Shown: positions 3,880 through 55,135 of the stretch, one piece after another
Layout of the letters: each line of letters opens with the position of its first letter
Position numbering within the stretch: position 1 is the first letter of the stretch
UHGV virus genome: UHGV-0258472
DNA: 55,135 nucleotides
Strand: one strand, 5' to 3'
From: a virus
Notes under the pieces: model-generated
Told to the model about the DNA's origin: nothing
Databases searched by the model: none
What the model saw: only the letters and a program-made list of their open reading frames with translations
Position numbers and translations under genes: made by a program

Positions 3880-4090
3880 TTTTAATTACCTCGATCAACA
3901 TTTCTTCTTCCAGGTTAGCCGGACGTTTACGGAATATCCCGGCAAAAACCAGATCATCGAGTAGGTCTTTACGCTTAAATAACCATTCCTTCATTATTAC
4001 CCCGTCATCGCTGCGATATACGACGCCGTTTTTCAAAAAATAAAAAGTGTGGGTATTTGTCTGAAGGTATAGATCTTCGTAAACGTCCAT
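3842..4090 (-). CDS. hypothetical protein (82 aa)
   Basis: ATG at 4090 with SD gaggg. Confidence 0.4.
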   Translation of the reverse strand: MDVYEDLYLQTNTHTFYFLKNGVVYRSDDGVIMKEWLFKRKDLLDDLVFAGIFRKRPANLEEEMLIEVIKNENQGKLFPGER

Positions 4091-4094
4091 GATA

Positions 4095-4322
4095 TTAACC
4101 CTCGACTACTTGCAGCCCGCGCCCCTTATCGCCCACGAAGTCGCCAAGACTGAACGTATACGACCACGCCGGATTGATGTAATGTTCATCAGCACCAGCG
4201 GCAATGAGATCAGCACCGTTAATCATGCAAGTAACATCATCGCTATGAACGACATTAACGACCTTACCAACAACCTGTTTCAATGACGGGTAGCCGTGAT
4301 CGTGCAAGAATTTAACTTTCAT
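4095..4322 (-). CDS. hypothetical protein
   Basis: ORF-track start is TTG; internal ATG at 4322 with purine-rich SD. Confidence 0.35.
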   Translation of the reverse strand: MKVKFLHDHGYPSLKQVVGKVVNVVHSDDVTCMINGADLIAAGADEHYINPAWSYTFSLGDFVGDKGRGLQVVEG

Positions 4323-24188: not shown

Positions 24189-24848
24189 ATGAATAAACTT
24201 AAAGCAATTGGCGTAATTAGCCACCGCACTAACCCTGAGTGTTACCCATCGTTTGAGGTAACAACATGCCGCACAGAATATAATTTTGGAACATACTTTC
24301 TATTGGGTGTTCGCGCTGACACTGGCGGCACTTATTCTGTTATGGCGGCAAGCTGGAAATTTGATAAATACGCTAATTTATCTAACAAGGATGATGACGG
24401 CATGAATAAAGAAAGCGAAATTATTGATGAATTGATCGAAGATGAGCGGCATGATTGCGATAAGCCGGAAGTTACGGAATGGAAACAGGGAGAAAAGCCG
24501 CCGCGCGGCGTGTGGCTTGATTGTATTGGATTGGCAAGTGATAGAGTGATTGATGTAGTTAAGTTTTTCTACATTGGCGATAAGTGGTCTATTGCTCACA
24601 GTAAGTTAGAAACTGATATTGAAACACCGATTGCATGGAAACAATACTCGTATCGAATTCATATTGATCCGAAAGAAAAAGCACTGGCGCAAATTGCGTT
24701 TGCGCTTGCTACAAAGGTTATTGGTGAGGATGCGGCAAAAGAGATTGACTTTAACCGCGACAACGAATTTTCGTGCGATTATCGCAATATGGCGCAAGCA
24801 ATTATTGATGGATGTATCGGACACGTTGAATACACGGGGAAAAGATAA
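24189..24848 (+). CDS. hypothetical protein (219 aa)
   Basis: ATG 24189 with SD gagg. Confidence 0.5.
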   Translation: MNKLKAIGVISHRTNPECYPSFEVTTCRTEYNFGTYFLLGVRADTGGTYSVMAASWKFDKYANLSNKDDDGMNKESEIIDELIEDERHDCDKPEVTEWKQGEKPPRGVWLDCIGLASDRVIDVVKFFYIGDKWSIAHSKLETDIETPIAWKQYSYRIHIDPKEKALAQIAFALATKVIGEDAAKEIDFNRDNEFSCDYRNMAQAIIDGCIGHVEYTGKR

Positions 24849-25066
24849 TGGATAAGATCGGGACAATCCTTATTAATCGTGAGCAAGTGCAAAAAATGTT
24901 AGGCGGACTTAGCAAGTCCGCATTTTTTAAGCTCGTTAAAAAATGGAAAGATGCGGGAACTCCTTTCCCTGAACCTGTTAAGGGGATGCCAGCATTAAAG
25001 CGCGGCGGATCTCTTTACCGCTATCAGGACGTTATTTCATTTTGTAAATCAATGGGCTTCATGTAG
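24848..25066 (+). CDS. putative excisionase / AlpA-like small DNA-binding protein
   Basis: Small basic protein convergent with integrase; size and position typical of Xis/AlpA-type regulators. Confidence 0.4.
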   Translation: MDKIGTILINREQVQKMLGGLSKSAFFKLVKKWKDAGTPFPEPVKGMPALKRGGSLYRYQDVISFCKSMGFM

Positions 25067-26223
25067 TAATCAGCCAGTTTATTCATCGCCTCTATTTGCT
25101 CCTTCACGTAATCATACTGATCATATATAGCCATCATTCCCGCCAGTTTATGACCTAAAACCTTTTCTGCTACGTGCGGCGCAATGCCAAGCGCTGAAAG
25201 GTTTGTCCTTACAGTGCGGCGCAAGTCGTGACACGACCACGGCTCGCCGCCCATCCTTAGCATCAAATCCCTTGCGGCTGTTTTCGGCACGCTCCTGTCT
25301 ACCGCTTCATCCCTTCCAGAAAGCACGGGAACGAAGATAAAATTAAAGCCGTGCAAATCCATAGCTTCACGCAATAAATCAACGCTAACGGCGGATAAAC
25401 CGCGTTTAAACTCGTTTCTGTTCTTACTCAATGCGCCCGGCACGGTCCACACACAGTTATCAAGATCGAAATGCTCGCGCCTTGCGTTTGTTAGTTCGCT
25501 TGTTCTGCATCCGGTGAATATAATCAGCTTCATCAATATCTGATTTAGCCGCGCCATTTTTGAACTGTCTATAATGCTGATTAGATGGTGAATCTCTTGT
25601 ATTGATAAGACGCGTTTCCTTTGTGCCGGGTTTTTGCCTACGTCTTTCACGCGTAGCAATGATATGTCGTCACGCTCCACGCGGCGGCGGCGCATGGCAT
25701 ATTTTATCACCGCCTTCATCCTGTTTAAGACTATCCCTGCCTGAACGGGCGCGCCACCATTAGCTACCTTTCTAAAAATACCCTCCCACATTATGGAGTC
25801 CATATCATCGACGATATAGCTACCGCATGGTCTGACAATGTGCTTACTTAGCATCGCCTCGACTTGCTTATAGTTGACCATGTTTCTTGCCTGCGGTGAT
25901 TCCATGTACTCCCTAACAATATCTTCAATCGTTGCCCGTGTCGTAACGCGGGAAAAGTTCATTCTTTTTACGATCGATGGATCTCGTCCTGAGTTTAAGA
26001 CTTCCTTATGCTCCGCCACCGCCGCGCGGGCTTCTTTGAGCGTTATTTCTCCGTAAGTGCCAATCTTCATCCGTCGCGGCTTGCCGTTGAATCGGTAGCG
26101 ATACTGGAAAGATATAACGCCGTGCGGGCTTATCCTGGCAGACAATCCGCCCGCGTCCGGGACTTCTTCCGGGCCGTCATATGGCTTGCCGTGGATGTTT
26201 CGTAATTTGGTATCTGTAAGCAT
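25024..26223 (-). CDS. int: tyrosine site-specific integrase
   Basis: C-terminal catalytic region with R ... HDLRRT ... Y; N-terminal arm-binding-like domain; start set at ATG 26223 (ORF-track 26292 is GTG). Confidence 0.8.
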   Translation of the reverse strand: MLTDTKLRNIHGKPYDGPEEVPDAGGLSARISPHGVISFQYRYRFNGKPRRMKIGTYGEITLKEARAAVAEHKEVLNSGRDPSIVKRMNFSRVTTRATIEDIVREYMESPQARNMVNYKQVEAMLSKHIVRPCGSYIVDDMDSIMWEGIFRKVANGGAPVQAGIVLNRMKAVIKYAMRRRRVERDDISLLRVKDVGKNPAQRKRVLSIQEIHHLISIIDSSKMARLNQILMKLIIFTGCRTSELTNARREHFDLDNCVWTVPGALSKNRNEFKRGLSAVSVDLLREAMDLHGFNFIFVPVLSGRDEAVDRSVPKTAARDLMLRMGGEPWSCHDLRRTVRTNLSALGIAPHVAEKVLGHKLAGMMAIYDQYDYVKEQIEAMNKLADYYMKPIDLQNEITS

Positions 26224-26227
26224 AAAT

Positions 26228-26479
26228 TTGGTCACTATTTGGTACACACATTTCACGCATGGATAGTAACACGATAGAAAACGATATGACACGATAGAAT
26301 AAATATTTCTTTTAAAATCAAGGTGAAACGGTGACGATGTGACACGATATGAAATGATAGAAATGGCGTTATCCGCTTATCTTTTGAATGGATAACTTAA
26401 TGAAAAATTCATTTGTATTCAATGTGTTATGTTTTGTTTTTGTTTTTTATTTATCATTTTGGTCACTATTTGGTACACA
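26228..26479. other. candidate attP region
   Basis: 21-bp direct repeat TTGGTCACTATTTGGTACACA at 26228-26248 and 26459-26479; ACACGATAGAA-like repeats between; inverted GTTATCC ... GGATAAC at 26368-26396; directly upstream of int. Confidence 0.4.
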
Positions 26480-26536
26480 AAAAGAAACGAGGCGTTAGCC
26501 TCGTTTCGCGCGGCGATGTTCTTCGCACATCACCTC

Positions 26537-29098
26537 TTATTCTTCGCTTCCGGTCAACTGCCTGACAAGCGCTTCAAGTTTAGTGATCCGCTCATCCATG
26601 AAGGCAATGTTAGCTCGTAAGCTGGCGTTTTCTTCCTCCAGTTCGGTGACGCGGTTATCTGTTTCGCGTGCAACCTGGACAAGTAAACCAGTCACAGCCG
26701 CGTAGTCAACATTGAGGTAACGCGTTTCTTCGCGTAGCTCGTTGCCGTCAGTGGTCGGGCCTTGTAACTCTTTACCGTAATGAGTAAACGATCCTACTGC
26801 TTCCGGTAGCGCCTCCATTACCTCCTGAGCGATAACGCCAGCGTAAGGCAGACCATTTTCCTTAAGCGTGTAGGTGTACCCGTTCATTTTACGGATAGCT
26901 TCAGTGGCATCACCTATAACCTGAATGTTGTCTTTCAAGTCGCGGTCAGATGATTGTATTACCGTTATGCAACTAACGGAACCTGGAATATTAAAATTAA
27001 CAGAATTGTCCGTGTTAAGCTGGCAATAAAAACCATATCCATTAGCAGCGCCGGTACTGGGGTCAGCAAATCCATACTCAAAAACCGATGGTCTTGAGTC
27101 CGATCCCCATAAATGTAAACGTGAGTTTACTTTTACGTTCTCTGATACACCAAGCGTCAATTTTCTTGTGAAATCATAAGAGTTAATGAACGATGAAACA
27201 AAATTCTGTGAGGCTGTCCATTTATTAGAATCGCTAAGCGTAGCCAGTTGGCGCCATCCTTTATCTACTCCGGCCTCAAAACTTCTGGCGAAGAATTTTG
27301 AATTTCGCCCGGCGAATTGGGTAGCGTAATTACCGCTAAATTGAGCATGGAATCCGCCAACAACCATTGTCCCATCGGGGCCGTTAATAGATCCAGCCAA
27401 CGGTTTAAACTTATTTACGTTATCTGAATGCTGACCATTCCAGTCGTTGCCAGTCTGTGTAAGTAGACCACCAGGAACGCTAAGAGTACCATCACCATTA
27501 AAATTAAAAAACATATGGTTTGATGCGGTCATGTCGCGAACAACAATTTGCGCGGCTTTTTCTGCTGCCCTGAACTCTGACTGATCAAGAGTCTGATTAG
27601 AAGCGGCATTGGTGCGCCTTGATATAAATGTCCTGTTGGTTACGTCCTCGCCATATGCAATAAATCCTTTAGTACAATTAATCGCACCTAAAACCGTGAA
27701 TGACGGCAGCGTAACGATAAACGGATCCGACGAATTCAATTTATTGGTGAGCGCAAAATTTGGTGAATATCCTTGTCTGAATATAGCGTTACTATAAAAA
27801 CCTGAACCGCCACCAGTAAAATCAAGAACGTTAAGAACGTTGTTTTCTGCGTTACCCTCTTCTGATGTGGATACGCCAAATTTGAATTTTACCCCGTTTG
27901 TTCCCAAAGAATAATCACCAGTCGGCACTACTACTTTTGCTTTATATCCCACCTGGATTTTAATTGGAAATGCTTTATTGCTTACATAAAAAGCTACATG
28001 TTGAGCGTAGTCTTTAGCTGATGCCTTAACGCAAAGTATAGCAACCTCGGTTGGCTCATATGCAGCATAGTACCCATACGCTATATTTTTGATGTCTGAC
28101 CAGCCACCGCATCTTACATATCCTGAAAACGTGTTGCTGTTCATTTCTGAAGCGGCACTACCGCCAACAGTTACAATTTCAACCGGACACGGAAAACTCC
28201 CTGCCCCGTTTGTTTCACCAGTGAACACGATTATAGGATAGTATTTCCCATCTTCCATGCCAGATGGTGCGCTTATGGTTATCGTTTTTGATAAACCACC
28301 TTCAGGGATCTGAAGATTTGTTTTTGCATCATCAAGCGACGTTGCACCAGTGCCGCCAGTAAGAATTGGAAGCGGTAGCCATTTACTAGCCTCTGAGTCG
28401 TAATAACCCCACGATCCTGAATCATAGACGGTAAGGAATTTATTTGCGTTTTGAGCGCATACGCGAGTTTCTCCTGTTCTTTGAACAAGCCTGTCTACTT
28501 CATTTTTTCTTGCGTGACGTGTCCAGTTAGCGCCTGATGTAGAAACCCATGTATACGTATAAAGTGATCGCGTAGCCCAACCAACAAATACGCCTGTATA
28601 TGAAGGCGTGCCGTCTCGTTGACAGATGAATCCACTTAAAAAGGATTCTCCAGCCGCTACAGCAGGAAAACCAGTGGCTGTTTCCTTTATGCGCAAAAAG
28701 CCAACGTAAGAAGACGGATCGCCTGATATATCAATGCAATCTCGCGGCGCTGGGCCTAAACCAATATTACTACCGTCTATTGCACTGGATATTTCGTCCT
28801 CTTTTTCCTGATAAAAACGAAGTGTTTCAGCTACGTCCTGAGCAAGACCATCAACTGAGATCGAGTCAGAAAGCAGAATACTGAATTTTGTCCCGGCAGC
28901 GATGGCAGGATTAGCCGCTGGCGTCACTGATAATTCAGTACCGCTCTTAATTTCTGTGATGGTAAAGATCTGGATAGGATTGCTAATGGCAATTAGCGTG
29001 CACCCTACACGGATGAGAGAAAGCGGTGCGGAAAAGTTTGTTCCCGTACCTGTAACAGTATTGCCGCTAATGGCAATTGTTCCCGTTGTATAAATCAT
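26537..29098 (-). CDS. side tail fiber / tailspike with C-terminal S74-type intramolecular chaperone domain
   Basis: 853 aa; C-terminal SDRDLKDNI ... NGYTYTLKENG ... GVIAQEV motif typical of self-cleaving chaperone domains; ATG 29098 with SD. Confidence 0.65.
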   Translation of the reverse strand: MIYTTGTIAISGNTVTGTGTNFSAPLSLIRVGCTLIAISNPIQIFTITEIKSGTELSVTPAANPAIAAGTKFSILLSDSISVDGLAQDVAETLRFYQEKEDEISSAIDGSNIGLGPAPRDCIDISGDPSSYVGFLRIKETATGFPAVAAGESFLSGFICQRDGTPSYTGVFVGWATRSLYTYTWVSTSGANWTRHARKNEVDRLVQRTGETRVCAQNANKFLTVYDSGSWGYYDSEASKWLPLPILTGGTGATSLDDAKTNLQIPEGGLSKTITISAPSGMEDGKYYPIIVFTGETNGAGSFPCPVEIVTVGGSAASEMNSNTFSGYVRCGGWSDIKNIAYGYYAAYEPTEVAILCVKASAKDYAQHVAFYVSNKAFPIKIQVGYKAKVVVPTGDYSLGTNGVKFKFGVSTSEEGNAENNVLNVLDFTGGGSGFYSNAIFRQGYSPNFALTNKLNSSDPFIVTLPSFTVLGAINCTKGFIAYGEDVTNRTFISRRTNAASNQTLDQSEFRAAEKAAQIVVRDMTASNHMFFNFNGDGTLSVPGGLLTQTGNDWNGQHSDNVNKFKPLAGSINGPDGTMVVGGFHAQFSGNYATQFAGRNSKFFARSFEAGVDKGWRQLATLSDSNKWTASQNFVSSFINSYDFTRKLTLGVSENVKVNSRLHLWGSDSRPSVFEYGFADPSTGAANGYGFYCQLNTDNSVNFNIPGSVSCITVIQSSDRDLKDNIQVIGDATEAIRKMNGYTYTLKENGLPYAGVIAQEVMEALPEAVGSFTHYGKELQGPTTDGNELREETRYLNVDYAAVTGLLVQVARETDNRVTELEEENASLRANIAFMDERITKLEALVRQLTGSEE

Positions 29099-35639: not shown

Positions 35640-36344
35640 TTAACCTACCTTGCTGGAACCAGGGAAACAGGAGATTGGTAGCGGATTTGGACGCGGGAAA
35701 CGCAAACGACAACCGCTTAGACGGTGGCTGCATCTGTCGGCTTTAGGATCGCTTGTCGGCTCGTCTTTATCGTTTGCCACTGGTCCGCCAGAGTACATAC
35801 ATCCGTCGCCTCTGTATTGCCACTGGCAAACGTCAGCAAGGATGGTGCGCCCAGGGATAACGGCCTTATCAGCATCAATTGGCGTTGACAGCTCATATTG
35901 CACCTGATCCGCTGTTTCCTCGCTCATGGCCTCCACGACATAAAAAGATACAGCCTCAATAGATGGATCTGCGTCTGGATTGCCGTTATGGAAGTTAACA
36001 GCGTCCAGGTATTTTACTTCCACCTGGCGGCGCGTTACCTTCATTCCTCTAAGGTCGTTGAAATCGTTATTCATCCCCGTAATAAGTCCGCCGATGTTGG
36101 CTACAACCATTTGGGGACGTGAGTAAACGCCTTCGTTTTTCATTTCGAAGCCAGTCGCTTCGATCGGGTAGCTGTTGTAAGCTACTCCCTTCCAGATAAC
36201 CGGGCCGTAATATCCATTCGCGCCGGAATGGAAGCGGATAACCTCGCCTCCCAGTGGCGTAAGGTCCAATTCAAACAAGTCAATTACCGCGCCGACTCCG
36301 GCATCTACGGAATCAATAATCATCTCTGTAGGTATATTGCGCAT
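35640..36344 (-). CDS. minor tail protein (lambda L-like)
   Basis: C-terminal Cys cluster and RFPRPNPLPISCFPG motif typical of gpL; ATG 36344 with SD aaaggtga. Confidence 0.7.
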   Translation of the reverse strand: MRNIPTEMIIDSVDAGVGAVIDLFELDLTPLGGEVIRFHSGANGYYGPVIWKGVAYNSYPIEATGFEMKNEGVYSRPQMVVANIGGLITGMNNDFNDLRGMKVTRRQVEVKYLDAVNFHNGNPDADPSIEAVSFYVVEAMSEETADQVQYELSTPIDADKAVIPGRTILADVCQWQYRGDGCMYSGGPVANDKDEPTSDPKADRCSHRLSGCRLRFPRPNPLPISCFPGSSKVG

Positions 36345-36473
36345 TTTCTCACCTTTCGCTTTTTTGTGATCTGCATCACGCTAAATCATACCGAAATGGT
36401 TGATCGCGCTTTTTACAATATGTATATTTTACTCAAACGAAGTGGTAGTTAACAAAATGGCGCGGGGTGATTT

Positions 36474-36638
36474 ATGGTTGCTAAATTGTGGAAGCTAACA
36501 CTATTCATGAACGATGGAAGCGAAAGACTGATTGCACTATATGACGACGAAGGCGAGGCGCTAATAGACGCGCTTGAGCTTTCTGAGGATAGCCGCGTTT
36601 TGGGATACAGAATTAAACCTGTAAAACGTGAGGTTTAA
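36474..36638 (+). CDS. hypothetical small protein (54 aa), moron cassette B
   Basis: ATG 36474 with SD ggggtga; antisense to tail genes. Confidence 0.4.
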   Translation: MVAKLWKLTLFMNDGSERLIALYDDEGEALIDALELSEDSRVLGYRIKPVKREV

Positions 36639-36642
36639 CAAA

Positions 36643-37044
36643 ATGCAAAAGTATCGTCTCGATGTATGGATGGCAGGAAGTAATGACTGGGAAGGTTACG
36701 GATTGCATGATAGTTACGAAATGGCGGTAGAGGAAGGGGAAAAACTTGTTCGCTTCTTCGGTCGCGCCAGGGAATTCAGAATAACTCCTGTACAAATAGC
36801 CGAGAAGGTGGAAGAGATGAACCCGAAAGATATTAACTTTAACGTCAATGTTGATTTTGCTGATTCTATGGATCAGTCTTGCCCTGGTGAAATACACGCA
36901 AAAGGTTTCCCGGCAGACGATCCAGAAGCAAAACGCGAATACGAAAAGCGGCAAAAGATTTCTGTATCGATAACCTGGGCGCGTTCGATAAATAAGGTGG
37001 CAGTATGGCGCGGCGTAATCACGGTGATTATGTGTACACGTTGA
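36643..37044 (+). CDS. hypothetical protein (133 aa), moron cassette B
   Basis: ATG 36643 with SD gtgaggt. Confidence 0.45.
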   Translation: MQKYRLDVWMAGSNDWEGYGLHDSYEMAVEEGEKLVRFFGRAREFRITPVQIAEKVEEMNPKDINFNVNVDFADSMDQSCPGEIHAKGFPADDPEAKREYEKRQKISVSITWARSINKVAVWRGVITVIMCTR

Positions 37045-37253
37045 AACAGGCCGCCCGCCTTATCGGTTATCATGAACACGAATTTATTGATTTGCTGATT
37101 GAGCGCGGGATACTGTACCAGGTCTGTTTAACACTGTACCCAAAAGCGAAATACCTACAGGAAAAGTTATTCATCATCATGACGGATGAAAACCAGGTTA
37201 ATCACTCATTCGTCACTGATAAGGGGTTAACATACTTAAGGGAAACATTATGA
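37005..37253 (+). CDS. small HTH DNA-binding protein, moron cassette B
   Basis: ATG 37005 with SD aaggtgg; LKQAARLIGYHEHEFIDLLIERGIL HTH-like segment. Confidence 0.45.
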   Translation: MARRNHGDYVYTLKQAARLIGYHEHEFIDLLIERGILYQVCLTLYPKAKYLQEKLFIIMTDENQVNHSFVTDKGLTYLRETL

Positions 37254-37332
37254 TATGTGTGATCACTACATATTAGAAGTGATTATTATAATAATAGGAT
37301 TATTGTTTATTCTGCTATCAACAATGTAAAAC

Positions 37333-37349
37333 CCCGCTTCGCGCGGGGT
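37333..37349. terminator. bidirectional-looking GC hairpin terminator
   Basis: ccccgcttcgcgcgggg flanked by T-rich sequence on both strands. Confidence 0.45.
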
Positions 37350-37354
37350 CGTGT

Positions 37355-37540
37355 TTATACGCCATCAAGTAAGAATAAAACTTCCTTGCCTTCTCTCGAT
37401 CTGCATCCAACATAACCGTCACCAACATCATGAAGATACCATGTATCACCATTATCAGCTTTTACAGTAAGATCGTTGATCTCGTAGTCGTCAAACAATG
37501 TAAAAGCGCCCGTGCGGTCAACTACACAAATACCATACAT
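37355..37540 (-). CDS. small protein of the early-region paralog family, located inside the tail cluster
   Basis: ATG 37540 with SD ggaggt; GDTWYLHD / hydrophobic-D-x-G motif shared with 2406..3354 genes. Confidence 0.4.
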   Translation of the reverse strand: MYGICVVDRTGAFTLFDDYEINDLTVKADNGDTWYLHDVGDGYVGCRSREGKEVLFLLDGV

Positions 37541-37551
37541 ATTAACCTCCA

Positions 37552-37905
37552 TCATCTGACGACTTGCTCAAATGTTGCGTTTAGCGTGCATACCGGGCCG
37601 TCTTTCGTCATGCTCCACTTTCTACATACAAAAAGCCTTTGCACCCCGTCAGTGGATGGAGTCCAGTAAAACGCCTCGACCGCGCAACGTGCTCTTAAAA
37701 ATGCGTCAACCTGTAGCGCTACGTTTCCGTCGTCACCGCATCCGGCGCTCGTACCCTTAAAGACCAGCGTATAGCTATCAAGTAAAGGGTTAATCCCTTT
37801 TGTCTGCCTCTGTTCATACCCATCACCCAGTTTAATGACAGACACGTTAGGCTCACTGTTTACGCTGTAGCTTCTTTGTGGTGTCCATCGGAACACTTCA
37901 GGCAT
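37552..37905 (-). CDS. minor tail protein (lambda M-like)
   Basis: 117 aa; N-terminal EVFRWTP motif typical of phage minor tail protein M; ATG 37905. Confidence 0.65.
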   Translation of the reverse strand: MPEVFRWTPQRSYSVNSEPNVSVIKLGDGYEQRQTKGINPLLDSYTLVFKGTSAGCGDDGNVALQVDAFLRARCAVEAFYWTPSTDGVQRLFVCRKWSMTKDGPVCTLNATFEQVVR

Positions 37906-38072
37906 AAAACCCCCTATAAGTTACATTTTGTATATACCTTTACGCGATTCTACGCGAAAAATGAGATCTTCATCACAATGATTATAGCCAGTTTTCAAAA
38001 TGGCTTCACTTTGGAAATCACATATTGTATACAGAAAGCAAATAAGAAAGACGTTGCACAAAGGGGGATGTT

Positions 38073-38327
38073 ATGAAACTGGTAGCGATTGACAAAAACC
38101 TGAAAGCACAGAAAAACGCACAGGACCGGATCATCAAGAAAGGCAAGGAACTTCTTAAAGCATTTTTGAAGAAAGAAGCCCACCCCAAAAAGTTACGCGA
38201 CGGATACGGTTTTAAATTTGACATCAACCCAGATTGGCGGCTGTTCAGTGAAGACCTCAAGGTATGGTTAATCATCGATCATCTTGAATACAACAGGCAC
38301 TGCGGAGTCAAAGGGGCGCATAAGTGA
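38073..38327 (+). CDS. hypothetical basic protein (84 aa), moron cassette A
   Basis: ATG 38073 with SD agggggat. Confidence 0.45.
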   Translation: MKLVAIDKNLKAQKNAQDRIIKKGKELLKAFLKKEAHPKKLRDGYGFKFDINPDWRLFSEDLKVWLIIDHLEYNRHCGVKGAHK

Positions 38328-38335
38328 GGCGTGAT

Positions 38336-38428
38336 ATGGAAGACGATAAATTCACCTGGCGTGAGATCTGGAACATCTGGCAAGTGATGTTTGCTCGCAG
38401 CTACATAGCAAGAAACGGAAGATTGTAA
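38336..38428 (+). CDS. micro-ORF (30 aa), moron cassette A
   Basis: ATG 38336 with SD gtgagg. Confidence 0.3.
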   Translation: MEDDKFTWREIWNIWQVMFARSYIARNGRL

Positions 38429-38481
38429 TTTGCGGAGGAAAATAAAATGAAAACCCGGCAAATAAAAGCAATGTAAAACGT

Positions 38482-38616
38482 ATGGCCTGGATCGTAAAAT
38501 GGATGGATAGTAAAGGAGATACATATACTGAACCATTTTTCAAACATACTGACGCAGTATTTGCAAGAAGTGTAAGAGGCGGGAAAATTGAAAGAGGATA
38601 TACAAGTTTTGAGTAA
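38482..38616 (+). CDS. micro-ORF (44 aa), moron cassette A
   Basis: ATG 38482; no clear SD. Confidence 0.25.
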   Translation: MAWIVKWMDSKGDTYTEPFFKHTDAVFARSVRGGKIERGYTSFE

Positions 38617-38654
38617 ATTTATTTATGTGATTAATAGCACAGTGGAGATTGATA

Positions 38655-38834
38655 ATGATTATTAACGAAACGGAAGAATGCAGACGTATTACTCTTAGCA
38701 TTGAGTATGACGAAAGATTATGGCTTGAGTGCGACTGCGAATTGATCGTAATAGATAAAAAGCAAGCCGCAGAACTAATAAAGGCATTACAGCTTTATGT
38801 AAACGGCGAATTTAAAAATGATGAAATTGAATAA
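38655..38834 (+). CDS. hypothetical small acidic protein (59 aa), moron cassette A
   Basis: ATG 38655 with SD agtggaga (ORF-track first codon is TTG). Confidence 0.4.
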   Translation: MIINETEECRRITLSIEYDERLWLECDCELIVIDKKQAAELIKALQLYVNGEFKNDEIE

Positions 38835-38841
38835 AAGATAA

Positions 38842-38860
38842 CCCCGGCACAATGCCGGGG
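38842..38860. terminator. bidirectional rho-independent terminator between cassette A and tape measure gene
   Basis: ccccggcacaatgccgggg hairpin with T-runs on both strands. Confidence 0.55.
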
Positions 38861-38866
38861 TTATGT

Positions 38867-41206
38867 TTATTTGCGACGAGGTTGTAATATTCCGCCTGGT
38901 CTTTGTGATTCCCTTGTTATCATTTTCATTGCTACACGTTCCATTGTCTGCTCAAGTCTGCGGCTGTCATCGTCGCTAAATCCGTTTGTGGTCTGAATGT
39001 TGATATTGACAGGCATACTAATGCCGCCGCCACCGCCAATATCACGCCCAGGAATAATTCTGCCATTCTCGCCAGGGATCATATATTGATTTCCGTTAGA
39101 TGTCTGGAATAGCTCCGGCCTGTTGTGTTCCCCTACACGGTACATATTGCCACCAATGACGCTACCACCATTAAAGCGTCCTCCGCCAAAAATTGACGTC
39201 GCCAGCGACATGATCGCAGAAAGCGCCGCCGCACCAGCCGCCGCCCAGCTACCACCAGTTGACGCAGCCGTTGCCGCCGCTGCCGGGGCCGCCGCCGCAG
39301 CAATCTGGCCTTGTGCCGCTACCGCGCCAGCCGTGGTACTTGCCTGCGTTGCCTTGCTTTGTGTCTCCATCATGATTTGATCTGCTATCCAGTCAGCGGC
39401 TATATCTGAAAGTCTGCTACCAATATTGCCGAGGATATTGCTACCTAAGTTAGCAAAAACATCGCTCAATGATTGAGTACCGTTTAACAGACCAACAAGC
39501 GCATTGCTCATACCACCTTTAAGGCCATTAACGCAATCACCGATCAGGCCGTTAGTGTCGCTTTGCGCCTGCCATTGCTCCCACTTCAGATCGCGGATCT
39601 GCTGCTCATAGGCTAACAATTCCTGTTTCTGTTGCGCTTCGGTAGCCCCCAGGTCGATAAGCATTTGCTTACGAATTGCCCATTCATTCTGTACCTGCTG
39701 AATAGGGTCAACCTCGCCTTTTAGCTGGTCCATCGGGCTAACTATTTGCGACCATTTATCACGCAATTCATCTACAGGGATTTGCGCTAATTCTTCCTTC
39801 AGTTCCTTGCCTATCCCTTTTTGCGCGGCGCGGTACTCAAGGATGGTGATTTTACCCTGGGCGAATGCAGCATCAATGGCCTTGCCGTTCTCTAATGCTT
39901 TGCGCATGGCGGCGGCGTCTTTGTTGTACTGGTCAGAAACGCTTATGCCTTTGTCACCAAGCCGATCAGCTTCTGATTTCTTCTCTTTTTTCGGTTTTTT
40001 CGGCTTATCAACTGGCTGATCGAATCCGGTGATCTTGCCGTCGTTAGCCTCACCCTGTTTCTGCATGAACTCATCATAAGCGGCAGTCGCGTTTTTAATA
40101 TCGTTTGCAAACGTCATAACCTTGCCGACGGTAGGGCCGAATTTTTTCTCGTTGTTGCTGTTTAGCTCTTCCTTGCGTTTATCGACAATTTCCTTCATCC
40201 ATTTGTAGCCATCCATTAGCGCTTTTATTGGCGTTACCATTCTAATGATCTCTTCCGCCACCTCACCAGCCTTAACAGCCACGTCGTCAAACATGTCGAT
40301 GAATTCGCTACCAGCCGTTTTGAGTGTATCGAAGCATGTTTTAGCAAATTTAGCGCCCTCGCCAAGTCCTTTAACGCCCTTCGTGATTAAGTCGATAGCT
40401 GATACCACGCCGTCTGATACGCCGAAAAGATCGTCCAACTGCTCAACAAGGCCCATGATCTCTACTTTAAGCTCATTGATAGCCATACCGGATGTGCGCG
40501 GCAACTGAGCAAACTTATCGTTTGTTTCCTGCGTAGCCGCCTGGATCGCGTTGACCATCCTTTCAGCCGTGATCTTGCCGTCCAGCATTTCTGCGCGGAA
40601 CTGGCCCATTGATAATCCCATCTGGCGGGCCATTGTCTGTACGATGGTCGGGGTGTTCTCAAGAAGGCTGTTGAATTCTTCAGCACGGAGTACGCCGCCG
40701 TCGATAGCCTGGCGGAACTGGCGCATTGAGTTAGACATCTGTTCCGCTGATGCACCACCTAACGCTCCCATTTTCTGAATAGTGCCAACAAGGTTAAGTA
40801 ACTGGCCTTCAGTAGCGGATGTGTTCTTTAATGAGATGGCAAGTCCTTGCCATAATTCGCCAGTATCTTTCAGGCTCTGGCCTGTTTCTTTCGATATTGC
40901 TTTCAGGCCGTCGAAAACCCGTCCGGCGGACTCCGCATCGCCAGTAAGCATTTTGATTTTTACGCGTAGCATTTTTGCTTGTTCCGCCATATCCATAAAT
41001 TGGCGCACTGCTTCCGCAGCAAGTAGCAGATGGATGACCCTGGTCAGTGCTTTGATGGATGTTTTCAGGGTGTTTACCTGGCGGTCAGCCTGTTTTGCGC
41101 CGCGCTCTATACGGTCAAAGGCCTGGTCTGCCTGTCGTTGTGCAACGAGAAGTTGACCAGTTTTTGCATCAACCTCGTAATAAATTGTACCTACACTGGT
41201 AGCCAT
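38867..41206 (-). CDS. tail tape measure protein
   Basis: 779 aa, Ala/Gly/Gln-rich with long helical segments; position upstream of M/L/K/I/J; ATG 41206 with SD gaggt. Confidence 0.8.
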   Translation of the reverse strand: MATSVGTIYYEVDAKTGQLLVAQRQADQAFDRIERGAKQADRQVNTLKTSIKALTRVIHLLLAAEAVRQFMDMAEQAKMLRVKIKMLTGDAESAGRVFDGLKAISKETGQSLKDTGELWQGLAISLKNTSATEGQLLNLVGTIQKMGALGGASAEQMSNSMRQFRQAIDGGVLRAEEFNSLLENTPTIVQTMARQMGLSMGQFRAEMLDGKITAERMVNAIQAATQETNDKFAQLPRTSGMAINELKVEIMGLVEQLDDLFGVSDGVVSAIDLITKGVKGLGEGAKFAKTCFDTLKTAGSEFIDMFDDVAVKAGEVAEEIIRMVTPIKALMDGYKWMKEIVDKRKEELNSNNEKKFGPTVGKVMTFANDIKNATAAYDEFMQKQGEANDGKITGFDQPVDKPKKPKKEKKSEADRLGDKGISVSDQYNKDAAAMRKALENGKAIDAAFAQGKITILEYRAAQKGIGKELKEELAQIPVDELRDKWSQIVSPMDQLKGEVDPIQQVQNEWAIRKQMLIDLGATEAQQKQELLAYEQQIRDLKWEQWQAQSDTNGLIGDCVNGLKGGMSNALVGLLNGTQSLSDVFANLGSNILGNIGSRLSDIAADWIADQIMMETQSKATQASTTAGAVAAQGQIAAAAAPAAAATAASTGGSWAAAGAAALSAIMSLATSIFGGGRFNGGSVIGGNMYRVGEHNRPELFQTSNGNQYMIPGENGRIIPGRDIGGGGGISMPVNINIQTTNGFSDDDSRRLEQTMERVAMKMITRESQRPGGILQPRRK

Positions 41207-55049: not shown

Positions 55050-55135
55050 AATTACAATTTCGCATTGTTAGGAAATATTTTAATCTATTTGTTTTTTATG
55101 CGCGATTATGTCTACAGTTTCCTGATTAACAGACC

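Follow-up and report, generated by a model that had tools for sequence, protein, structure and literature searches.

The interval at 26224-26483 is the intact attP of a temperate coliphage of the mEpimmI group with a type II integrase, and the two copies of a perfect 21-bp direct repeat that it holds are most likely its paired integrase arm sites in an arrangement of the P4/lambda type. The window, that is the whole stretch of DNA that was analysed, is 55,135 bp long. An intact attP next to the integrase gene was the original prediction, and it was borne out by a comparison of attP, attL, attR and attB, which sets the crossover between the two 21-mers. It is a standard P4-like attP in a known phage group and no concept is changed by it.

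The genome in the window is complete and circularly permuted. It belongs to a coliphage of the mEpimmI group that encodes a type II integrase, and the phages nearest to it are MagusPhagus and mEp010/013/044. Megablast matches to the mEp and MagusPhagus genomes were obtained at attP and at both window ends, and the identity over the attP region is 96.5% with MagusPhagus and ~89% with mEp010, mEp013, and mEp044. The last 2.5 kb of the window map to MagusPhagus 35975-38405 and the first 2.5 kb to 38406-40426, that is, window positions 55135 and 1 are contiguous in MagusPhagus (38405 and 38406). Since the ends are contiguous there and host flanks are absent, the window is a whole circularly permuted phage genome, and a free or circularly permuted phage genome was what had been foreseen. 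No host genes were found flanking the window, and no terminal redundancy or repeat was found at its ends. The place at which the window was opened is arbitrary and follows closely upon the lysis genes, which are covered by the last 2.5 kb. Judged by its sequence, the phage is an isolate distinct from MagusPhagus and from the mEp phages. The mEpimmI group has been published, insertion at the abgT 3' end has been linked to type II integrases such as those of mEp010/013/044, E. coli UMNK88 has been given as a type II lysogen, and the N-terminal conservation of the mEpimmI integrases has been remarked upon (PMC11893012). A search of the text of that paper showed that insertion sites are mapped in it and that attP, arm-type sites, direct repeats, and excisionase are not mentioned (PMC11893012); the published description of the group stops at the insertion locus. 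The window has its phage group, its integrase type, and its abgT 3'-end site in common with mEp010, mEp013, mEp044, and the type II E. coli prophages.

The features of the attP interval and of the genes that bound it are the following.

24848-25066, plus strand: candidate RDF (excisionase), a 72-aa HTH protein, convergent with int and overlapping the int 3' end.

25024-26223, minus strand: int, heterobivalent tyrosine integrase of 399 aa with a P4-like domain layout (Pfam, PHROG 1).

26227-26248, plus strand: int-proximal arm site, with half-sites TTTGGTCACTA (26227-26237) and TTTGGTACACA (26238-26248), 4 nt upstream of the int ATG; proposed pair of arm-type Int sites and int operator, 100% conserved in 8 type II attPs.

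26271-26300, plus strand: distal 10-bp repeat triplet, ACGATAGAAA, ACGATATGAC, and ACGATAGAAT; probable excisionase (RDF) sites.

26301-26333: AT-rich spacer between the triplets, 73% A+T; a possible bend.

26334-26363, plus strand: proximal 10-bp repeat triplet, ACGATGTGAC, ACGATATGAA, and ATGATAGAAA, its end 6 bp from the core.

26368-26396: core region, in which GTTATCC...GGATAAC forms an inverted repeat about 26382; the core-type Int sites C and C' are proposed here.

26370-26385: common core TATCCGCTTATCTTTT, that is TATCC(G/A)CTTATCTTTT, shared with the abgT attB in the four-way alignment.

26417-26429, plus strand: candidate IHF site ATTCAATGTGTTA within the AT tract, with one mismatch to WATCAANNNNTTR.

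26458-26479, plus strand: int-distal arm site, the second half-site pair, in the same orientation as the first; it abuts the T-tract of the tail-fibre terminator and is 99.4% conserved.

26484-26507, minus strand: intrinsic terminator of the tail-fibre (late) operon, with a 10-bp stem containing 6 G-C pairs, a 4-nt loop, and a T-run.

26537-29098, minus strand: side tail-fibre gene, the right bound of attP (PHROG tail fibre families, E 6e-257; tail fibre in the MagusPhagus annotation).

The sequence TTGGTCACTATTTGGTACACA is present at 26228-26248 and at 26459-26479, exactly twice in the 55-kb window, and the perfect 21-bp direct repeat of the original prediction is thus real. The similarity of the two copies runs to 27 nt at 93% identity (26222-26248 and 26453-26479). 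When up to 3 mismatches were allowed on both strands of the window no matches to TTGGTCACTATTTGGTACACA were found beyond these two, and 100 dinucleotide shuffles of the window gave 0 matches to the 21-mer. Each 21-mer is a tandem half-site pair, TTTGGTCAC/TTTGGTACAC, with an 11-bp period (TTTGGTCACTA followed by TTTGGTACACA), and within the window both the half-site TTTGGTACACA and the spaced pattern TTTGGTN5TTTGGT are confined to the two 21-mer sites. One copy lies ~140 bp left and the other ~90 bp right of the crossover, and the T-run of the terminator passes straight into the right-hand copy. Phage genes on both sides of the interval had been noted earlier, and they are the integrase gene on the left and the tail-fibre gene with its terminator on the right, both on the minus strand. 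The inverted pair that had been pointed out between the repeats is also there, as GTTATCC at 26368-26374 and GGATAAC at 26390-26396; its centre falls inside the mapped crossover segment, and the inverted repeat is perfect in three of eight related attP variants, its outer arms being variable. It is followed, again as predicted, by an AT-rich tract, with 84% A+T at 26397-26458 compared to 54% in the whole window. The exact IHF consensus WATCARNNNNTTR was not found in attP and the best site is the one with one mismatch at 26417, where the consensus positions are kept among the relatives and the N positions vary; IHF bound at 26417-26429 would probably bend the AT-rich attP DNA.

The crossover was mapped by a four-way alignment of the window attP, both prophage junctions of E. 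coli UMNK88, and the empty abgT attB. The only stretch common to attP and attB is TATCC(G/A)CTTATCTTTT at 26370-26385, and in UMNK88 attL and attR are reciprocal attP/attB hybrids. The G/A difference at 26375 remains with its parental arm in the UMNK88 junctions, and since it segregates in this manner, strand exchange took place within CTTATCTTTT (26376-26385). Thus, the phage integrates at the 3' end of abgT by exchange within CTTATCTTTT. The 7-bp overlap is predicted to be ATCTTTT (26379-26385), centred on 26382, and these positions are unchanged in all eight attP variants.

The int-side junction in UMNK88 adjoins a 99-bp remnant of the abgT 3' end and ogt, and the tail-fibre-side junction, ~55 kb away, adjoins abgT truncated at its 3' end. 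A 321-bp query over the attP region was also run against 5,426 complete E. coli genomes, which answered the earlier call for a search of candidate host genomes with the core; abgT junctions were found. Matches were obtained in 35 of the 5,426 genomes and the whole query was covered in none. Among the matches listed, 13 genomes match the left part only (query 1-186), beside an integrase gene, and in 10 of these 13 the match also overlaps the annotation of a truncated AbgT gene. In lysogens, the 21-mers are parted onto opposite ends of the ~55-kb prophage, which makes them arm elements of attP. It had been remarked that such cores are often the 3' end of a tRNA gene; here attB is instead the 3' end of the protein-coding abgT. 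A tRNA-type attB was rejected because there is no tRNA gene in the window and attB is in abgT, and a search for Rfam families near attP gave none but one match at chance level. It was also observed that the 27 C-terminal residues of AbgT, predicted to form a terminal hydrophobic segment, are missing in a lysogen and that the truncated protein ends at a TGA supplied by the phage at 26384-26386, the target gene not being reconstituted.

The original prediction had placed the arm-type repeats between the two copies of the 21-mer. Repeats do exist there, but the best candidates for the integrase arm-type sites are most likely the 21-mers themselves rather than the ACGATAGAA repeats. Both 21-mer sites are tandem half-site pairs, one in each arm, and by sequence and by comparison they bear no relation to the core. 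The 22-mers are 100% (int-proximal) and 99.4% (int-distal) conserved in 8 distinct type II attPs, and in the same 8 attPs the outer core arms are 82-90%, the AT tract 90%, and the proximal triplet 98% conserved. A paired element of this kind, ~230-240 bp apart, flanks differing cores in relatives whose integrases are 32-50% identical to the window Int, as listed here.

mEp021 with related prophages and contigs, Int 50%: core ~CTGTCTGGAATG, at the 5' end of ydaM/dgcM; int-proximal arm TTTGGTCACG(T/A)TTTGGTACACA; int-distal arm TTTGGTC(A/T)C(T/A)ATTTGGTACACA, beside a terminator.

Contigs L034-L063, Int 44-46%: different core; int-proximal arm (A/T)TTGGTACRCAATTTGGTACACA; int-distal arm AATTGGTACACAATCTGGTACACA (L043) or AATTGGTTCGCAATCAGGTACACA (L053).

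Contig L070, Int 40%: different core; int-proximal arm ATTATGTACACAGTTATGTACACA; int-distal arm GATGTGTACTCGATTAAGTACATA.

Contig L066, Int 33%: different core; three int-proximal ATGTACAC sites; int-distal arm TTGTATGTACACCATTCTGTACACA.

The element upstream of int has its equivalent in all the relatives, down to 32% Int identity. It stays just upstream of int, remains tandem, and retains its orientation and the ~230-240 bp to its partner even where the core is another. As the integrase diverges, the half-site changes from GGTACAC to TGTACAC in both arms together. In L070 the int-proximal arm carries pairs of TATGTACAC, to which the pair in the opposite arm, GATGTGTACTC/GATTAAGTACATA, is related but degenerate; L066 has ATGTACAC in both arms, and the spacing there is 234-263 bp depending on which int-proximal site is counted. 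The sequence of the int-distal 22-mer is also present in the type I (mEp021-like) phages, in which both the integrase and the core are different. The identity of the Int N-terminal domain to that of the window is 55-66% where Int as a whole is 39-50% identical and 43% in the relative at 33%, and in the core-binding region, which is the lowest part, it is 20-42%. The N-terminal domain being the best conserved and the core-binding region the least conserved fits with shared arm sites and differing cores. Two features count against the reading of the 21-mers as arm sites. The first half-site, TTTGGTCAC, is imperfect and one base shorter than TTTGGTACAC, and a perfect identity over 21 nt exceeds what an arm site needs; in other groups the copies differ at 2-4 positions. 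A search of the literature for the half-site TTTGGTACAC gave unrelated primer matches only.

It is conceivable, though improbable, that the roles are the reverse, namely, that the 10-bp ACGATAGAA-like repeats are the Int arm sites and that the 21-mers bind some other partner, for example the small HTH protein, a factor of the host, or a regulator, or serve mainly as the int operator. The 10-bp repeats are numerous, phased, and beside the core, and a 21-mer 4 nt from the int ATG is in the natural position of an operator. The repeats that had been noticed between the 21-mers are in fact more regular than first described, with six 10-bp units in two triplets in exact 10-bp phasing (26271/26281/26291 and 26334/26344/26354), and the pattern A[CT]GAT[AG][GT][AG]A has no more than 15 matches in the window, both strands included, of which these units are 6. 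However, the only arm in which they occur is the int-proximal one, where they stand between its arm pair and the core, whereas heterobivalent integrases need sites in both arms. The half-site in the 21-mers, on the other hand, follows the divergence of Int in both arms and matches the annotated layout of P4, while the 10-bp repeats change between phages whose Int N-terminal domains stay ~65% identical. Moreover, L043 and L070 have similar internal repeats and the same HTH helix, yet their arm half-sites are different.

The last observation brings in the protein that would bind the 10-bp repeats if the 21-mers are the arm sites. In 55 of 64 related loci, with Int identities as low as 40%, the gene for the 72-aa HTH protein is found in synteny, and the protein belongs to PHROG 4745 (DNA-binding protein) with homologues that match Pfam HTH_23/HTH_29. 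The window protein itself gave no significant match against Pfam (AlpA was below threshold, E 0.19), a profile search of the PDB gave AlpA at E 0.74, no significant similarity to P4 Vis was found, and a single-sequence AlphaFold model, with a pLDDT of 55, was too poor for use. The internal repeats differ between groups with differing HTH proteins; in the type I phages they are of the AACGGAT...TAAAC type, and in the 45% group (L043) and L070 they are RTGAAAC repeats in 10-bp phase. The L043 group and L070 have the putative recognition helix SRTTFYRKRK in common and different arm half-sites. Such a partial uncoupling of the internal repeats from the arm half-sites fits with the HTH protein on the repeats and Int on the 21-mers. 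With moderate confidence, we propose that the 72-aa HTH protein probably binds the six phased 10-bp repeats and acts as the excisionase. Three head-to-tail sites at 10-bp spacing resemble the filament formed by lambda Xis.

It is very unlikely that the repeat is neutral, without function, and was left behind by a duplication or gene conversion. A protein site does not need 21 nt of perfect identity, but the repeat is invariant in 8 diverged attPs while the flanking bases change, and its position, orientation, and spacing are kept down to 32% Int identity. The least likely explanation, which had been offered as the alternative in the original prediction, is that the 231-bp interval is a small inserted element with the 21-mers as its target-site duplication or terminal direct repeats: two contigs with int, a single 21-mer, and the terminator do have the look of an empty site with 231 bp exactly absent, but the interval holds a functional core that was mapped from lysogens, the same flanking pairs surround other cores and other internal repeats with copies that differ at 2-4 positions, unlike a fresh duplication, and the 321-bp region matches prophage ends only, in 35 of the 5,426 E. 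coli genomes, and is never dispersed. The unit with its flanking direct repeats was not found at unrelated loci, its matches in the E. coli genomes being prophage ends only, and a scan of a genome collection for the 22-mer gave 2 loci, each upstream of an integrase gene.

In the two contigs (L019 2475-2495 and L024 2475-2495; IMGVR_UViG_3300045988_076816 and _064823), the equivalent of window 26249-26479, 231 bp including the core, is precisely absent. The order in both is int ATG, one 21-mer, and terminator, and the RDF-like ORF differs at its N-terminus. L019 and L024 have 0 mismatches over 6.2 kb and are thus one lineage, and a deletion between the repeats or an assembly collapse explains them better than an empty site does. 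As judged from the contigs, they could be either an integration-defective phage in which attP was deleted between the direct repeats or the product of such a collapse.

The arrangement in the window was compared with known systems. In P4 (NC_001609, as annotated), as in the window, Int has an Arm-DNA-bind_3 N-terminal domain and int is transcribed away from attP. The tandem 12-bp 'attP arm sequence repeats' of P4 (3942-3965) are 16 bp upstream of the int ATG and in the window this distance is 4 bp. The P4 core is at 4078-4097, and the core is ~115-120 bp beyond the int-proximal pair in both P4 and the window. P4 also has a second tandem pair (4151-4174), in the same orientation and beyond the core, and the distance from pair to pair is 209 bp compared to 231 bp in the window. 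The half-site motif is ATGCCCCC with a 12-bp period in P4 and TTGGT(A)CAC with an 11-bp period in the window. P4 differs in that further copies of its repeat, in inverted orientation, lie at the int gene and within it, its Int is 25% identical to that of the window (BLASTP, E 6e-21), and the excisionase candidates are without significant similarity. In lambda and HK022, related integrases keep their arm-type sites and recognise different cores; likewise, the type I and type II integrases share the int-distal 22-mer and use the ydaM and abgT cores, respectively. They differ from lambda and HK022 in belonging to another integrase subfamily and in the number and arrangement of the arm sites.

The Pfam matches of the window Int are Arm-DNA-bind_3 at residues 2-87 (E 1.8e-19), Phage_int_M, and Phage_integrase (E 6.4e-17). 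By the layout described above, the N-terminal Arm-DNA-bind_3 domain would bind the tandem arm-type pair of each 21/22-mer, core-bound Int would bridge from its C-terminal domains at the core to the arm sites on both sides, and bends in the AT-rich stretches, probably by means of IHF, would help the assembly of an intasome of the P4/lambda type.

The position of the int-proximal pair also bears on the expression of int. The int start codon is identical to that in the RefSeq annotation of the UMNK88 prophage, and because the pair ends 4 nt from this ATG, int transcripts must begin inside attP and cross the pair. No sigma-70 promoter was picked up within attP by a consensus scan of the int strand. 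By eye, a conserved TGnTACTAT, the reverse complement of 26263-26271, was seen that is a candidate for an extended -10. In KplE1, IntS and the RDF TorI have been demonstrated to repress the int promoter through the att sites (PMC2951348). The IntS-TorI system of KplE1 (CPS-53)/HK620 resembles that proposed for the window in that int faces away from att, its promoter and leader overlap the arm and RDF sites, the RDF gene is transcribed separately from int, and there are multiple RDF sites in the int-proximal arm; it is different in that its arm sites carry a conserved TAAA and its target is a tRNA gene, argW, whereas the target of the window phage is a protein-coding gene (PMC2951348). By analogy with KplE1 IntS, Int bound at the int-proximal pair probably also represses its own gene; the autoregulation was demonstrated in KplE1 and in the window it is deduced from position only. 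The type II int gene has no recognisable Shine-Dalgarno sequence at 26224-26227 (…GTGACCAAATTTATG), and in the type I relatives GAGGTG or GGGGGG is found at this position; this suggests that the translation initiation of the type II integrase may be weak or unusual.

The value of these results is mainly in annotation because attP, the core, and the likely crossover are now fixed, and integrase and excisionase sites are proposed, for a prevalent group of gut coliphages. What is new is modest. The parts of the attP have been assigned, from the core and its probable overlap to the arm pairs, the probable RDF sites, and the probable RDF gene, and one arm-site sequence with one spacing was seen to be common to several integrase lineages. 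The related attPs, with the same arms and spacing, different cores, and a conserved integrase N-terminal domain, are a natural series for the change of integrase target specificity, and the series is usable for orthogonal integration vectors.

A search for TTTGGTCACNNTTTGGTACACA in 596 Gb of genomes gave two matches only, L073 4100-4121 in a MAG of Robiginitomaculum sp. and L074 6215-6236 in a MAG of Marinicaulis sp., both marine alphaproteobacterial. Two matches are near the count expected by chance (~1), but their position is not chance-like; in both, a tyrosine integrase gene starts ~20-30 bp downstream of the 22-mer. No similarity between L073 or L074 and the window was found besides the 22-mer. 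The L073 integrase has a DUF6538 N-terminal domain (Pfam E 2.7e-9) and three tandem half-sites are present in L073; judging from this placement, DUF6538 may be an arm-binding domain that reads the same half-site. A broader proposal, which we put forward as tentative and rather doubtful, is that (T)TGGTACAC pairs ~230 bp apart and the conserved N-terminal domain serve a whole radiation of integrases whose core specificity has moved to one or another of several nearby E. coli loci, among them abgT and ydaM, that DUF6538 reads the same half-site, and that the perfect repeats make attP prone to self-deletion. If this is the case, then precise self-deletion of attP between perfect 21-bp arm repeats would be a simple route to integration-defective variants.

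A different kind of junction was observed in one further contig (L016 ~1-70; IMGVR_UViG_3300045988_111075), in which the sequence joined to the int-side arm and the left core part (…GCTTATC) is unrelated DNA instead of abgT. The junction corresponds to window 26381/26382, and an AlpA-like N-terminus (MATPVSLMDDQMVDMAFITQLTGLT…) is encoded by the opposite strand of the unrelated DNA. It could be the result of integration at a secondary site or beside another integrative element, or the contig could be chimeric.
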